Virus genome (UHGV): UHGV-0343520
Direction: 5' to 3' (one strand)
Length of the DNA stretch: 13,648 nucleotides
From: a virus
The position numbers and the translations under genes were made by a program. Under the pieces are notes generated by a model that ran no database searches, was not told the origin of the DNA, and saw only the letters and a list, made by a program, of their open reading frames with translations. This document shows positions 2,750 through 9,179 of the stretch, in pieces (position 1 is the stretch's first letter; each line of letters begins with the position of its first letter).

Positions 2750-3272
2750 GGGCTGGTTTATTGTATGCCAAATGATTATTAAAAAGGTTGTGTTAATAAC
2801 AAAATCCGAAATAATATGCCTGCATATTTTTATCTTGCTTATATTGTGCATAGCAGGCTCATCCCTGCAATCAAAACTGTATGATGAGTATTTTTTGTTT
2901 TCCTTTTTTCCAGTCATCTGATGATGACCTGCTTCTTTTTAATCCGGATCGACATCAGTTTTTTAAGATAATTCCTGCGAGTTATATGCACAAATGCCAC
3001 AAACTCCGCATTTTATGTGGTTGGGAGTTGCCGGGCGCGCAGTGAGTTTGCTAAGAAAACTCCTGCATGGTGAATCCCCCTGTGCGGTGGGGTGATACCA
3101 TTAACCTTTTCTGTCGCCGACAGGTATCACGAACATTTTGTTCACCGGGAGGCACCCGGCACCATGCACTTCAATAGATTCTCTCCACATTATGGATATT
3201 CTTTCAGAATATCCCACGCAGACTTTGTGTAAATGTTAACAAATGTGCGTTTTATTTGATCTGATTCGCTGT

Positions 3273-3302
3273 TTGAGCGTCCAAAACAACGGTATATATA
3301 AT
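3273..3302 (+). promoter_or_regulatory. Sigma70-like promoter for the lipoprotein moron genes
   Basis: TTGAGC (3273-3278), 18-bp spacer, TATAAT (3297-3302). This leaves a ~25-nt leader to the ATG at 3332, which has GAGGAAAA as Shine-Dalgarno. Confidence 0.45.
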
Positions 3303-3331
3303 CCTTTACTATATGACATATGTGAGGAAAA

Positions 3332-3760
3332 ATGGGTTTTCGTAGCGCATCAATTCTTACGTTGATTATTAGTGGGATTATTATCGGGTGCACTGATGCT
3401 GTATCGACAAATTATCATGACCGTACATCATATTACTCCGATAAAGCAATAGAGACACAGTATGTGAGTTCATCTGAACGTACTTCTGATGTTAGTGAGG
3501 ATATCCGTCTGTATGCCCATCAAATCAAGAGCGCCATCGAAAAACAGTTCGGGGATGCGAGTAAGTATTCAGGAAAAGAGTGTACACTGAGAATGCATAT
3601 GGCCCCGAATGGCCTTCTACTGGAGGTTAAAAGAGAAAGTGGAGACCTCGATTTATGTCGTGAAGCGATGAATGCGATAAAGAATGCTGATATACCTGCC
3701 CCCCCTTCGCCGGAAGTATATAAAGTATTTCAAAATGGGGTGCTGGATTTTAAACCCTGA
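3332..3760 (+). CDS. Lipoprotein with TolA C-terminal (domain III)-like domain
   Basis: 142 aa. N-terminal signal peptide with lipobox IIGC. The C-terminal ~85 aa (YAHQIKSAIEKQF...CTLRMHMAPNGLLLEVK...PPSPEVYKVFQNGVLDFKP) align closely with the recalled C-terminus of E. coli TolA (...YAGQIKSAIESKF...CTLRIKLAPDGMLLDIK...VFKNAPLDFKP). AT-rich with its own promoter. Confidence 0.8.
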   Translation: MGFRSASILTLIISGIIIGCTDAVSTNYHDRTSYYSDKAIETQYVSSSERTSDVSEDIRLYAHQIKSAIEKQFGDASKYSGKECTLRMHMAPNGLLLEVKRESGDLDLCREAMNAIKNADIPAPPSPEVYKVFQNGVLDFKP

Positions 3761-3910
3761 TATTTATTGTTTTGTAATAAACGGTTTCGGCTTAGGTTTG
3801 TTCTGACACAGCTACGGCACTGAGCTAAATTTAGCGGATAGTCAGCTCTGAGCCAGTGGCGGACGTAACAACTACTATTGCTGAGATTTTAATGGATTGA
3901 GGAGCAAGAA

Positions 3911-4306
3911 GTGGGATTAAAGAAAATCGTTATGTTGACTTTTTGGGTCGGTTTTGTTGCGGGATGCACACCTTTACACCCTTCAGATTGCCACAAAACT
4001 ACTGCTACAGGTAGTTGCAGTTCAGGACGCTGGGATGATCAGGATGAATGGGGGGCGCAAGCGCGGGGAATCAGAGCTGCAATTAATGCCAAACTTGATG
4101 AGCCGCATAACTGGAAAGGGAAAAAATGCAGGTTGCATATGGAATTCTCTCAGGATGGCACGGCGTTAAAAATATCTACCAGTAACGGTGATAAAGCCTA
4201 TTGCGAAGCGATAAAGTCCGCAGCTCATAAAGCCAAATTTCCGGCCTTCAACAATCCGGAAGTCTACAGAGATTTTCAGAAATCTGGCTTTGACATGCGA
4301 GGTTAG
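3911..4306 (+). CDS. Second, divergent lipoprotein with TolA domain III-like C-terminus
   Basis: 131 aa with GTG start after GAGGA. Lipobox VAGC. C-terminal region (IRAAINAKL...KKCRLHMEFSQDGTALKIS...FNNPEVYRDFQKSGFDMRG) follows the same TolA-III pattern as the upstream gene but is more divergent. Confidence 0.75.
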   Translation: MGLKKIVMLTFWVGFVAGCTPLHPSDCHKTTATGSCSSGRWDDQDEWGAQARGIRAAINAKLDEPHNWKGKKCRLHMEFSQDGTALKISTSNGDKAYCEAIKSAAHKAKFPAFNNPEVYRDFQKSGFDMRG

Positions 4307-4431
4307 CTCTTCAATTACTATATCTCATTCATAGCAAACTGACAGATTTAATGATGTTCTATATACGAAACCTGTGATGTCAAGTCTGAGCTAATACAAA
4401 TAAACATAATATCAGAGAAATACATTTTATT

Positions 4432-4453
4432 AGCTCGCTACGGCGAGCTTTTT
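4432..4453 (+). terminator. Rho-independent terminator after the lipoprotein pair
   Basis: Stem AGCTCGC (4432-4438), loop TACG, stem GCGAGCT (4443-4449), then a T-run to 4453. Confidence 0.65.
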
Positions 4454-4557
4454 ATATTGCATCGTCTCCAGCATATATATCAATTAAGGCTCTGATTGAT
4501 GTGTCTGAAAGCCTACACATAATAACTATGCCATCCGTTCCGTGCGGAGGTGAGGCT

Positions 4558-4773
4558 ATGAAATCCATGGACAAAATTTCAACAGGCATTGCCTACGGCA
4601 CCTCCGCAGGCAGTGCTGGCTACTGGTTTTTACAGTTGCTCGATAGAGTAACTCCGTCACAGTGGGCTGCAATCGGTGTGCTGGGTAGTCTGGTATTTGG
4701 CCTGCTGACGTACCTGACAAACCTTTATTTCAAGATTAAAGAAGATAAGCGCAAGGCTGCGAGAGGTGAATAA
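4558..4773 (+). CDS. S: Pinholin, phage 21 S21 type (class II holin/antiholin with dual start)
   Basis: Translation [26 protein letters not shown]...[15 protein letters not shown] is near-identical to S21 as recalled. Dual-start motif M-K-S-M, with GGAGGTGA just upstream. Stop overlaps the endolysin start. Confidence 0.9.
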
Positions 4774-5270
4774 TGCCTCCATCATTACGAAAAGTCGTTG
4801 CTGCTGCTATTGGTGGCGGAGCAATTGCTATAGCATCAGTGTTAATCACTGGCCCAAGTGGTAACGATGGTCTGGAAGGTGTCAGCTACATACCATACAA
4901 AGATATTGTTGGTGTATGGACTGTATGTCACGGGCATACAGGAAAAGACATCATTCCCGGTAAAACGTATACCAAAGCAGAATGCAAAACACTCTTGAAT
5001 AAAGACCTTGCCACTGTCGCCAGACAAATTAACCCGTACATCAAAGTCGATATACCGGAAACAACGCGCGGCGCTCTTTACTCATTCGTTTACAACGTGG
5101 GTGCTGGCAATTTCAGAACATCGACGCTTCTTCGCAAAATAAACCAGGACGATATCAAAGGCGCATGTGATCAGCTACGTCGCTGGACATATGCTGGCGG
5201 TAAGCAATGGAAAGGTCTCATGACTCGTCGTGAGATTGAGCGTGAAATCTGTTTGTGGGGTCAGCAATGA
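4773..5270 (+). CDS. R: SAR endolysin (R21-type lysozyme with signal-anchor-release domain)
   Basis: 165 aa. N-terminal Gly/Ala-rich SAR domain ([18 protein letters not shown]) followed by a lysozyme catalytic region. Near-identical to phage 21 R as recalled. Confidence 0.92.
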
Positions 5271-5731: not shown

Positions 5732-5868
5732 AATCTTAACTACAATATGATTCATTTTGATGATTGTTTCATAAGGAACAGTGAAGTAAGATCTAAGAGG
5801 AGTTAAATTTTATACAGTATAATCATAATATTGCAGCAAGGTGGTTATAATTGAAAGAATATTTAGAT

Positions 5869-7326
5869 ATGAATACATCTCATGTAAGAGTTGTTACTCA
5901 TATGTGTGGGTTCCTGGTTTGGCTCTATAGTCTTTCAATGTTGCCACCAATGGTTGTAGCATTGTTTTATAAAGAAAAAAGCCTGTTCGTTTTCTTTATA
6001 ACTTTCGTTATATTTTTTTGCATTGGTGGCGGAGCGTGGTATACAACTAAGAAATCTGGCATTCAATTACGTACCCGTGATGGGTTTATTATAATTGTAA
6101 TGTTTTGGATTTTGTTTTCTGTTATTAGTGCATTCCCTTTATGGATTGACTCAGAACTTAATTTAACGTTCATTGATGCTCTGTTTGAAGGGGTTTCTGG
6201 AATAACAACAACAGGAGCAACTGTAATTGATGATGTTAGTTCATTACCTCGGGCATATTTGTACTATCGGTCACAGTTAAATTTTATAGGTGGTTTAGGA
6301 GTTATTGTTCTGGCGGTTGCTGTATTGCCATTATTGGGTATTGGTGGTGCAAAGCTTTATCAGTCAGAAATGCCGGGGCCATTTAAGGATGACAAACTCA
6401 CTCCCCGCCTGGCCGATACGTCACGGACACTGTGGATAACTTATTCTTTATTAGGTATTGCTTGTATTGTCTGTTATAGACTTGCAGGAATGCCTTTGTT
6501 TGATGCTATTTGTCACGGGATTTCCACAGTTTCGCTTGGTGGTTTCTCAACTCATAGCGAGAGTATCGGATATTTTAATAACTATTTGGTTGAGCTGGTG
6601 GCTGGTTCTTTTTCCCTGCTATCGGCTTTCAACTTCACTCTTTGGTATATTGTTATTAGCAGGAAAACGATAAAACCTTTAATCAGAGATATTGAACTTC
6701 GTTTCTTTCTGTTAATAGCCTTAGGGGTGATCATTGTTACCTCTTTCCAGGTCTGGCATATAGGTATGTATGACTTGCATGGAAGTTTTATTCATTCGTT
6801 TTTTCTTGCCAGCTCCATGCTCACTGATAATGGTTTAGCTACGCAGGATTATGCAAGTTGGCCCACGCACACGATAGTGTTTTTGCTGTTGTCAAGTTTC
6901 TTTGGGGGATGTATAGGTTCAACTTGTGGTGGAATTAAGTCACTTCGATTTCTTATACTTTTCAAACAAAGCAAACACGAGATAAATCAGCTTTCTCATC
7001 CCAGAGCGTTGTTGAGTGTAAATGTAGGAGGGAAGATAGTTACAGATCGTGTAATGAGGTCTGTATGGAGTTTCTTTTTTCTTTATACTCTCTTCACGGT
7101 GTTTTTTATACTGGTGTTAAATGGTATGGGATATGATTTTCTTACATCATTTGCAACAGTGGCTGCATGTATTAATAATATGGGATTAGGTTTTGGGGCT
7201 ACTGCATCGTCATTCGGAGTGCTTAATGACATTGCAAAATGTTTAATGTGCATAGCTATGATTCTTGGTCGCCTTGAAATTTATCCTGTTATTATATTGT
7301 TTTCAGGTTTTTTTTGGCGCTCCTAA
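5869..7326 (+). CDS. trkG: TrkH/TrkG-family potassium uptake protein (prophage-borne)
   Basis: 485 aa from ATG 5869 (MNTSHVRV...). An in-frame TTG at 5851 with AGGTGG upstream is an alternative start. Multi-pass membrane protein with Gly-rich selectivity-filter-like segments (GITTTGAT, GIGGAK, LGGFSTH, STCGG). Strongly AT-rich relative to its neighbours. trkG is known to sit in the Rac prophage downstream of Rz/Rz1. Confidence 0.9.
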   Translation: MNTSHVRVVTHMCGFLVWLYSLSMLPPMVVALFYKEKSLFVFFITFVIFFCIGGGAWYTTKKSGIQLRTRDGFIIIVMFWILFSVISAFPLWIDSELNLTFIDALFEGVSGITTTGATVIDDVSSLPRAYLYYRSQLNFIGGLGVIVLAVAVLPLLGIGGAKLYQSEMPGPFKDDKLTPRLADTSRTLWITYSLLGIACIVCYRLAGMPLFDAICHGISTVSLGGFSTHSESIGYFNNYLVELVAGSFSLLSAFNFTLWYIVISRKTIKPLIRDIELRFFLLIALGVIIVTSFQVWHIGMYDLHGSFIHSFFLASSMLTDNGLATQDYASWPTHTIVFLLLSSFFGGCIGSTCGGIKSLRFLILFKQSKHEINQLSHPRALLSVNVGGKIVTDRVMRSVWSFFFLYTLFTVFFILVLNGMGYDFLTSFATVAACINNMGLGFGATASSFGVLNDIAKCLMCIAMILGRLEIYPVIILFSGFFWRS

Positions 7327-7463: not shown

Positions 7464-9179
7464 ATGAGCGAGAAATTAAAGATAGTCTATCGCCCATTAC
7501 AAGAATTGTCACCGTATGCGCACAACGCCAGGACGCACAGTACTGAGCAGGTGGCACAACTGGTAGAAAGTATTAAGCAATTCGGCTGGACTAATCCGGT
7601 GCTGATTGACGAAAAGGGCGAAATTATTGCGGGTCACGGTCGTGTTATGGCGGCTGAAATGCTCAAAATGGATTCTGTTCCGGTCATTGTTCTGTCTGGC
7701 CTGACGGATGAGCAGAAAAAGGCGTACCGCCTGGCAGATAATCGCCTGCCGATGAATGCTGGCTGGGATGAAGATCTGTTGCGGATGGAGCTGTCGGACC
7801 TAATCAATGCTGATTTTGATGTCTCCCTGACAGGCTTCATCCCGACAGAAATTGATGAACTGTTGACGGATGTTTTGCCCGGTACAGGAAATGAGGAGGA
7901 GCCGTATACGACGAAAATTGATACGCCTGTTTATGAGCCGTCGGGCGGTAAACCGGATATCAGTGAACTGTACGACGATACGAAAACTCAGGAGCTGATC
8001 AGCCGGATACGTTCGGCGTCCCTTGAGCCTGATATTGAGAAATTCCTCCTGTGTGCGGCAGAACGTCACACGGTGTTTAATTTCAGCAGAATTGCGGACT
8101 ATTACGCTCACGCCCCCGCTGAAATTCAGTGTTTTTTCGAGGAGTCGGCGCTGGTGATCATTGATTATCAGCAGGCTATTGAAAATGGATTTGTCCGGAT
8201 GACGCAGCGCATGGTGGAGATCATGCATGGTGGTGAGGAGGAGAATATGCGTGATGATTTTTGCGCCTTTATTCTGACTCACGGGCGACCGGACAAAGTT
8301 CTGACTTACCGGACGTTGCGTCGTGCTGGCTATACCGGGAAAATTTTTATCGTTGTTGATGATGAAGATAAGACACGGCATCAGTACATGGCTGAATTTG
8401 GTGAACAGGTGCTGGTGTTTTCCAAAGCCGATATCGCCAGTCGTTTTGACGAAGCCGATAATTTCTGTGACCGCCGCTCAATTTTTTACGCCCGTAATGC
8501 CTGTTTCGACCAGGCAAAACTGGTCGGGTGTAAATACTTCATTCAGCTCGATGATGATTATCACGAGTTCCAGTTTCGGGTGGATCGCAACTATGACCAG
8601 GCCTATTTTCCGATAAGGAAACTGGATGCGATCCTTTCTGAAATGCTGGCGTACTACGAATCAATACCTGCTCTTTCCATCGCTATGTCGCAGGGCGGGG
8701 ATTTTCTTGGTGACAATGGCGGCCATGCTTCGTGGGTGAAACGCAAGGCAATGAACAGCTTTATCTGTTCGGTTGATCGACCGTTCTCATTCATGGGGCG
8801 CATTAACGAGGATGTGAATACGTACACGAATCTCGGTCGCTGTGGTGAATTGTTTATGACGATCGGTGCTGTCCAGTTAGGGCAGAAACAGACGCAGAAA
8901 AACAGCGGCGGAATGACCGAGCTGTATCTGGATTCCGGAACCTACGTTAAAAGTTTTTACTCCGTCATGTATGCGCCGTCGTGCGTAAAAATCTCACTGA
9001 TGGGTGCCAGCCATAAACGCATTCACCATCAGGTCACCTGGAACAACGCTGCAGTAAAAATCCTTCACGAAAAATACAGGAAGAAGACACCCTGCATATC
9101 AATGGGGGTGACAAATGATTCCGTATTCGAAAGTCGAGTCTCTGGCAGCGTGCCGGATGACTGCACAACAAATCGCTGA
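7464..9179 (+). CDS. ParB/Srx-like N-terminal domain protein fused to a large uncharacterised C-terminal domain (not a recognisable methyltransferase; DxD-type motifs)
   Basis: 571 aa. The N-terminal ~130 aa (IVYRPLQELSPYAHNARTH...IIAGHGRVMAA...KKAYRLADN) is a typical ParB-like nuclease-domain module as found on phage DNA methyltransferases. The C-terminal ~430 aa has no DPPY/NPPY or FxGxG motifs but has acidic clusters (FIVVDDEDK, IQLDDDYHEF). Position between the lysis cassette and terminase is typical of phage ParB-fusion enzymes. Confidence 0.8.
   Translation: MSEKLKIVYRPLQELSPYAHNARTHSTEQVAQLVESIKQFGWTNPVLIDEKGEIIAGHGRVMAAEMLKMDSVPVIVLSGLTDEQKKAYRLADNRLPMNAGWDEDLLRMELSDLINADFDVSLTGFIPTEIDELLTDVLPGTGNEEEPYTTKIDTPVYEPSGGKPDISELYDDTKTQELISRIRSASLEPDIEKFLLCAAERHTVFNFSRIADYYAHAPAEIQCFFEESALVIIDYQQAIENGFVRMTQRMVEIMHGGEEENMRDDFCAFILTHGRPDKVLTYRTLRRAGYTGKIFIVVDDEDKTRHQYMAEFGEQVLVFSKADIASRFDEADNFCDRRSIFYARNACFDQAKLVGCKYFIQLDDDYHEFQFRVDRNYDQAYFPIRKLDAILSEMLAYYESIPALSIAMSQGGDFLGDNGGHASWVKRKAMNSFICSVDRPFSFMGRINEDVNTYTNLGRCGELFMTIGAVQLGQKQTQKNSGGMTELYLDSGTYVKSFYSVMYAPSCVKISLMGASHKRIHHQVTWNNAAVKILHEKYRKKTPCISMGVTNDSVFESRVSGSVPDDCTTNR

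Follow-up and report, generated by a model that had tools for sequence, protein, structure and literature searches.

When the C-terminal domain III of the host co-receptor TolA (TolA-III) was exported to the periplasm by Levengood-Freyermuth, Click and Webster in 1993, the cells reportedly gained tolerance to group A colicins as well as Ff phages, along with a leaky outer membrane. Boeke, Model and Zinder are said to have obtained, in 1982, resistance to Ff phages and tolerance to colicins by expressing the phage protein g3p in the host, and a periplasmic fragment of TonB was reportedly found by Howard et al. in 2001 to inhibit transport by FhuA and FecA. Here we analyse two adjacent open reading frames (ORFs), ORF A and ORF B, in a 13,648-nucleotide stretch of viral DNA (UHGV virus genome UHGV-0343520; the whole stretch is called the window below), which is the late region of a lambdoid Escherichia coli prophage. 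Both encode small predicted lipoproteins with a C-terminal TolA-III domain, and we propose, rating the chances for and against as evenly balanced, that they act as competitive decoys for Tol-dependent invaders.

Like the fragment of Levengood-Freyermuth and colleagues, A and B would present a free TolA-III domain in the periplasm; that fragment, however, was artificial, soluble and over-produced, whereas A and B are natural, diverged and predicted to be lipid-anchored. Host-expressed g3p blocks the same g3p-TolA step that we propose for A and B, but there the phage ligand saturates the host TolA, while here, in mirror image, a copy of TolA would saturate the ligand. An exported TonB C-terminal domain does have a natural counterpart, encoded beside a TolA-III gene on a Klebsiella cloacin-type plasmid (see below); it is absent from this window and is soluble rather than lipid-anchored. 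With E. coli TolA-III itself (PDB 1S62, 3QDP, 1TOL, 2X9A) A and B have the fold and the disulfide cysteines in common; they differ from TolA in their predicted lipid anchorage to the opposite membrane and in residing on mobile elements instead of in the tol-pal operon. Cor of lambdoid phages and Llp of T5 resemble the predicted A and B in being small phage lipoproteins of the inner leaflet of the outer membrane that act on entry; by blocking FhuA they keep out superinfecting phages (on Llp-FhuA exclusion, see bioRxiv 10.64898/2026.03.26.714494). Cor and Llp have no sequence relationship to A and B, which both belong to phrog_5772 of PHROGs (‘unknown function’) and whose Pfam family is that of TolA, and they plug the receptor FhuA, whereas A and B would act on the invader itself, which they would bind as mimics of a host co-receptor. 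We place A and B with the entry-blocking lipoproteins of mobile elements, their unusual point being the proposed mechanism, mimicry of a host co-receptor.

By profile, by sequence and by fold, A and B are true TolA-III homologues. Against Pfam's profile for TolA's C-terminal domain (PF06519, curated cut-off 25 bits), A scored 82.6 bits (E 2.4e-23) and B 54.6 bits (E 1.3e-14); the only other Pfam match in either protein was a weak one to TonB_2. A phmmer search of PDB sequences returned E. coli TolA-III as the best match to both, with E 5e-28 for A and 5e-9 for B. AlphaFold gave a predicted local distance difference test score (pLDDT) above 90 for residues 51-142 of A and residues 45-131 of B only, and below 50 for the signal peptide and linker (residues 1-50 in A). 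The model of A superposes on TolA-III chain 2x9a_B with a root-mean-square deviation of 0.6 Å over 88 residues (TM score 0.96), and that of B on 3qdp with 1.1 Å over 86 residues (TM score 0.92); both show the alpha/beta fold of TolA-III with its three-stranded sheet. The cysteines that form the disulfide pair of TolA (C363-C388) are kept in A and B and are invariant in an alignment of 18 sequences from the A and B subfamilies. A first-pass annotation of this DNA, made from the letters alone, had proposed an alignment of the C-termini with TolA-III, and PF06519, phmmer and the AlphaFold superpositions all bear it out.

A and B are not TolA itself. On the equivalog profile of full-length TolA, NF007065 (cut-off 213), A scored 107.8 and B 53.7, both below the threshold. 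On TIGR02794 (cut-off 59.45) B failed with 47.2, and A scored 75.6 in a match that spans only the last 98 positions of the profile. Both proteins lack the N-terminal inner-membrane anchor of TolA and its long helical domain II. We therefore rejected the possibility that they are TolA orthologues, given the failed NF007065 cut-off and the missing anchor and domain II; the gene name ‘tolA’ that RefSeq gives to ORF A is an over-annotation. A search of PADLOC defence families returned no match for either protein.

ORF A (positions 3332-3760, plus strand) encodes 142 amino acids from an ATG start with a Shine-Dalgarno sequence, GAGGA, at 3324-3328. ORF B (3911-4306, plus strand) encodes 131 amino acids from a GTG start, with GAGGAG at 3899-3904, seven bases upstream. 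Both products are predicted to be outer-membrane lipoproteins carrying a TolA-III domain, which in B is diverged. Signal peptidase II substrates begin with a positively charged stretch, continue with a hydrophobic core and reach a lipobox, [LVI][ASTVI][GAS]C, by about residue 35, and both sequences follow this pattern. In A, R4 is followed by a hydrophobic core and the lipobox IIGC at residues 17-20, so that the signal peptide and lipobox (3332-3391, plus strand) read MGFRSASILTLIISGIIIG/C, with Cys20 as the predicted lipidated residue; in B, K4 and K5 precede the lipobox VAGC at residues 16-19, with Cys19 in the corresponding place. The lipobox cysteine is invariant across the 18-sequence alignment. 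Threonine stands at position +2 in both proteins, and since there is thus no Asp at +2, sorting to the outer membrane is predicted for both. The linker of A (3392-3493, plus strand) comprises 34 residues of low confidence in the model; that of B has 25 residues, is conserved and contains two further conserved cysteines. The TolA-III domain of A (3494-3757, plus strand; residues 55-142) corresponds to TolA 334-421, and that of B (4043-4303, plus strand; residues 45-131) to TolA 335-421. A ends in LDFKP exactly as TolA does, and B in FDMRG. The first-pass annotation had read the two adjacent genes, their lipoboxes and the LDFKP terminus correctly; its description of the genes as AT-rich was a mild overstatement, their GC content being 0.42 (A) and 0.46 (B) against 0.456 for the window.

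Filamentous phages and many colicins enter the cell only if they bind TolA-III. The surfaces by which TolA-III binds its ligands are known, and allowed us to compare A and B with the host protein site by site. The N1 domain of g3p, colicin N and the TolB N-terminus bind the last strand of TolA-III by strand addition, which requires the backbone hydrogen bonds formed at D418 and K420, and g3p in addition touches the first helix, residues 334-349 (PMC4339652). The colicin A site lies on the opposite edge and involves strand 375-380 together with K368, K379, L392 and K396 (PMC3365938). With ungapped numbering (TolA = A + 279 = B + 290), 52 of the 88 domain positions in A and 27 in B are identical to E. 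coli TolA, amounting to a domain identity of about 59-60% and 31%, respectively. The first helix (16 positions) has 11 identities in A and 4 in B, the last strand (10 positions) 7 and 2, and the colicin A site (9 positions) 4 and 2. The last strand of A retains L-D-F-K-P, and in its colicin A site the changes D to E, I to V and L to M are conservative and two of the three lysines are kept. The last strand of B keeps the Asp and has Arg for the Lys. Moreover, in a library of 1.8 billion proteins, no representative resembles A more than the TolA-III of E. coli itself does. Because of the retained ligand-site elements and this proximity to E. coli TolA-III, A is a credible mimic of the host co-receptor, and would be a better candidate than B for binding the known TolA-III ligands. 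B bears a surface different from that of TolA-III and probably has a different or narrower ligand set, so that the first-pass view of the two copies as equivalent mimics was too simple.

Selection acts on both domains. The ratio of nonsynonymous to synonymous substitution rates (dN/dS) was 0.23-0.37 for the A domain, measured against variants that are 65-68% identical, and 0.08 for the B domain against plasmid copies, which points to purifying selection on both and to strong purifying selection on B. In 76 short members of the family, the last strand holds to the motif F-K-N-x-x-L-D-F-K about as closely as that of full-length TolA does, and conservation at Asp418 was 0.67 in the short members versus 0.36 in full-length TolA.

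The two genes travel as cargo. Comparison with related loci by blastn revealed a sharply bounded block, positions 3044-4774, that contains an STnc100-like RNA element, A, B, a terminator and the holin gene. This block recurs at 96-99% identity in phages with unrelated Q genes, for example mEp460_ev081, and the phages that have it carry lysozymes that are only 33-35% identical. In related prophages the slot of A and B holds other cargo. The block thus has the mobility expected of a moron (independently transcribed cargo), being present or absent among related phages and moving between backbones. Among 5,426 complete E. coli genomes, 773 contain the A and B region at a coverage of at least 80% and 1,342 have some match to it; the cassette is found at an identity of at least 99% in 786 records of these genomes. 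Variants of A that are 65-68% identical to it (A') stand alone, without B, in prophages of enterohaemorrhagic E. coli type, flanked on one side by a porin or methylase gene and on the other by nanS-p, DUF826 and holin genes. This is the slot in which Stx phages carry stx, followed there by nanS-p. The proposal that A and B occupy a cargo slot between Q and the lysis genes, the one used by stx in Stx phages, is therefore upheld, with a variant of A lying just upstream of nanS-p in an Stx-type slot. In one such prophage (locus L048) the A' gene is followed by an STnc100-like element and then immediately by nanS-p, about 5 kb away from the lysis genes.

The family extends well beyond prophages, and beyond what the first-pass annotation had considered. 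B-type genes are widespread in Citrobacter, Enterobacter, Klebsiella, Raoultella and Serratia, and about 600 plasmid records hold a full-length B-type copy at an identity of at least 80%. On pO157, a copy 88% identical to B lies between hok and toxB. In all six conjugative plasmids of the I complex that we sampled (L086-L091: IncK2/Z and IncB/O/I1, one of them an IncF cointegrate), a B-type gene, also 88% identical, follows the relaxase gene nikB on the same strand at a distance of 68 bp (for example L086:6965-7396), suggesting that it is a backbone gene of the I-complex transfer region. Phage If1, which uses I pili, binds TolA-III (PDB 2x9a). Klebsiella plasmids carry other TolA-III lipoproteins, 27-39% identical. 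On the K. pneumoniae plasmid NZ_CP028788.2 (a 10-kb ColRNAI plasmid; L003:4908-5641), such a gene and the beginning of a gene for a TonB C-terminal domain with a Sec signal (PF03544, E 8.9e-11) overlap, and the pair adjoins an operon for a cloacin-type rRNase bacteriocin, its immunity protein and lysis. This pairing suggests a decoy strategy shared by both energy-transducing systems; a paper on a Klebsiella cloacin-type plasmid merely notes ‘TolA’ and ‘TolB family’ genes (PMC10269471). On the Klebsiella IncF plasmid pCuAs (L004:4229-5258), a TolA-III lipoprotein gene immediately follows a gene for a thioredoxin/DsbA-like protein with a signal peptide, a neighbour that may be relevant to disulfide formation in TolA-III.

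A profile search of the 1.8 billion representatives returned 588 TolA-III clusters. Among the best 150 of these, 96 were of 175 amino acids or shorter, and about 60 of those had a clear lipobox, with Sec signals in others. TolA-III lipoproteins are thus a large family found on I-complex plasmids, on pO157, on bacteriocin plasmids and, for some members, on chromosomes. The contexts of six distant short members (loci including L094:6001-6408, L092:85-465 and L099:6001-6333) were phage-like in one case, beside a secretin gene in another, ordinary chromosomal in two and uninformative in two. The chromosomal pair lie between a ClC channel and an osmoprotectant ABC transporter gene and next to yaiY/yaiZ-like genes, and with two of six in such neighbourhoods we rejected the notion that the short family is confined to mobile elements.

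The cassette has candidate transcription signals of its own. A sigma-70-like sequence, TTGAGC-N18-TATAAT (3273-3302, plus strand), matches the consensus at 10 of 12 positions and lies 30 nt before ORF A; an intrinsic terminator (4432-4459, plus strand), located after ORF B and before the holin gene, consists of a 7-bp GC-rich hairpin (4432-4449) followed by UUUUUAUAUU and folds with -13 kcal/mol (z -3.8). A scan found no terminator between A and B. Both signals had been named in the first-pass annotation and are present, the promoter as a consensus match; the expression in the lysogen, independent of Q, that was read from them is putative. Since A and B point in the same direction as the lysis genes, late read-through into them is likely as well, judging from the gene arrangement. 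The left edge of the mosaic block is formed by the STnc100-like element (3035-3221, plus strand; Rfam RF02076, 86.6 bits against a gathering score of 47). Its terminal hairpin is without the U-run seen in the consensus of the family, and transcription might therefore continue into ORF A. The element itself could be a late leader or a small RNA. The literature searched held no expression data for A or B. A 32-fold ciprofloxacin-induced gene of CP-933O, EDL933_2012, has been linked to ‘TolA’ (PMC11125564); we rejected it as a lead to the expression of A-type genes, the locus being a real tail-fibre gene.

In the mechanism that we favour, the lipid anchor would sit in the inner leaflet of the outer membrane and the free TolA-III domain would extend into the periplasm on a flexible tether, placing the decoys where incoming proteins first leave the outer membrane. 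Since the anchor and the helical domain of TolA are lacking, A and B can neither couple to TolQR nor transmit force, and can only bind the ligands of TolA-III. Their targets would be, among filamentous phages, the g3p N1 domain of those specific for pili and, among bacteriocins, the translocation domains of group A colicins and their relatives; the TolB N-terminus, through which nuclease colicins get to TolA, might be captured as well. Once an invader was captured, its import would stall and the lysogen would be tolerant. We favour the decoy explanation because the ligand sites are kept in A, because the family is found on elements that encode pili or engage in bacteriocin warfare, because of the pairing with an exported TonB domain, and because of the tolerance that periplasmic TolA-III reportedly confers. 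The distribution of the A and B family fits that of an entry-blocking cargo gene.

Several points weigh against decoys. The contact residues of B mostly differ from those of TolA. The reported affinities of TolA-III are weak, about 12-15 μM for g3p-N1 and 40 μM for TolB (PMC4339652), so a decoy would have to be abundant or well placed, and the capture of TolB should cost envelope integrity. By tblastn, mEp460_ev081 is the only carrier of the genes among 50,697 deposited phage genomes, and isolated phages consequently give no comparative depth. Part of the family may have a housekeeping role, as the chromosomal short members hint. Given the late-operon orientation just before the holin gene, A and B may be expressed mainly in lytic growth. 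Finally, the sequence upstream of A could not be aligned with that upstream of the A' variants, where the promoter-like site is not conserved, and about 45 bp upstream of B, including the Shine-Dalgarno sequence, is the only part in common with the plasmid copies; these alignments speak neither for nor against transcription in the lysogen.

The position of the genes, on the same strand and immediately upstream of those for the holin, lysozyme and Rz, and their movement with the holin gene as one block, would also suit proteins that modulate the Tol-Pal system. Here the tethered domains would attach, at the outer membrane, to the N-terminus of TolB, or else to Pal or CpoB, and dampen the Tol-Pal cycle of the host, which would loosen the outer membrane for lysis or for release of progeny or toxin, or raise vesiculation, tolerance being a side effect. 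We consider this explanation, the main rival, unlikely, though deserving of attention. A' variants occupy the slot of stx, whose release needs lysis, and the last strand kept in A is the one that TolB uses, disruption of the TolA-TolB interaction giving the full tol phenotype (PMC4339652). However, plasmids without a lysis programme carry close homologues as backbone or cargo genes, the A' gene of L048 lies far from the lysis genes, a promoter-like site and a terminator belong to the cassette itself, and the virulent phages in the collection of 50,697 genomes have no such genes. A chronic tol phenotype, moreover, would be costly, and yet the cassette is kept nearly unchanged in the 786 records mentioned above.

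The divergence of B raises the further possibility, in our view a rather improbable one, that B at least has a different partner, with the TolA-III fold serving as a scaffold tied to conjugative pili, to DNA transfer or to some other envelope ligand, as in recipient-side exclusion, pilus retraction or interaction with a secretin. The contact residues of B have diverged and yet its dN/dS is low, the constraint reaches into the linker with its two extra conserved cysteines, the B type follows nikB in every I-complex plasmid sampled, one distant family member is beside a secretin gene, and some members are chromosomal. Strand addition, however, is backbone-based and tolerates sequence change (PMC4339652), so TolA-like ligands are compatible with the divergence; B also occurs in prophages and on the non-conjugative pO157, and TolA-III is the sole domain present. 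That A and B are captured, nonfunctional tolA fragments or annotation artefacts, as the RefSeq name of ORF A and the many truncated copies in databases could suggest, is scarcely credible: the ORFs are intact, have acquired a signal peptide and lipobox, and retain Shine-Dalgarno sequences and the conserved disulfide cysteines, both genes are under purifying selection, and the family comprises hundreds of clusters, at least 60 diverse ones being lipoproteins.

Carrying the decoy explanation over to the wider family, we tentatively suggest, with somewhat less than even confidence, a strategy of ‘import immunity’, in which mobile elements of Enterobacterales export lone copies of the C-terminal domains of the host's Tol and Ton energy transducers, usually lipid-anchored beneath the outer membrane, that would intercept pilus-specific filamentous phages and Tol- or Ton-dependent bacteriocins before they reach TolA or TonB. 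The elements concerned would be lambdoid prophages, I-complex conjugative plasmids, pO157 and bacteriocin plasmids. If so, pilus-encoding plasmids would cancel the phage susceptibility caused by their own pili.

The family of TolA-III domains was already known, as was what free TolA-III does in the laboratory. No functional study of A- or B-type proteins was found in the full-text literature, subscription-only papers being outside the scope of the search, and the paper on the IncK plasmid pCT does not mention the B-type gene adjacent to nikB. As far as the searchable literature shows, natural, mobile, lipid-anchored versions of TolA-III have been annotated by homology only and are unstudied, which together with the lack of a PADLOC match agrees with the first-pass statement that this was not known as a described phage system. 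New here are the B-type genes after nikB and on pO157, and the TolA-III lipoproteins of Klebsiella plasmids, one of them with a TonB partner. If A and B do act as decoys, one in four sequenced E. coli strains (the 1,342 of 5,426 with a match) would possess a factor, so far unrecognised, for tolerance to group A colicins and filamentous phages, which would bear on colicin- and bacteriocin-based therapeutics, on hosts for M13/Ff phage display and on competition in the gut, as well as on the biology of pO157 and of the epidemic IncK and IncB/O resistance plasmids. Decoys would also represent a new logic of superinfection exclusion, periplasmic mimicry of a co-receptor instead of masking of a receptor, and would provide natural TolA-III variants of altered specificity for dissecting Tol-dependent import.

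The gene order of the window is DUF1367, YbcO, DUF1133/Q-like, a gap, ORF A, ORF B, holin, lysozyme and Rz/Rz1, followed by a TrkH-like transporter, a ParB_N-TAGT protein, the terminase subunits and the portal. A and B thus lie between the Q-like DUF1133 gene (1074-1736), their upstream neighbour, and a P21-type holin, lysozyme and Rz cassette. The holin S gene (4501-4773, plus strand; PF04971, E 4.5e-35) forms the right end of the shared mosaic block and is context, outside the TolA-like module. About 1.6 kb between the Q-like gene and ORF A contain no convincing genes, and no tRNA genes were found in the Q-to-lysis gap of the window; Stx phages, in contrast, carry tRNA genes there. A strong terminator (1814-1846, -19.7 kcal/mol) stands right after the Q-like gene, the gap that follows has several promoter-like sites, and 560 bp of this noncoding sequence (1897-2456) are missing from most otherwise near-identical loci.

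Two further genes of the window are worth noting. A TrkH/TrkG-like potassium transporter gene (5851-7326, plus strand; PF02386, E 5e-145; GC content 0.38) directly follows the lysis cassette and is found in only some related loci; trkG likewise follows the lysis cassette in the Rac prophage. Between Rz and the small terminase subunit, positions 7464-9179 (plus strand) encode a 571-amino-acid protein in which a ParB N-terminal domain is joined to a TET-associated glycosyltransferase domain (PF20691, E 7e-34); this may be cargo that serves DNA modification.

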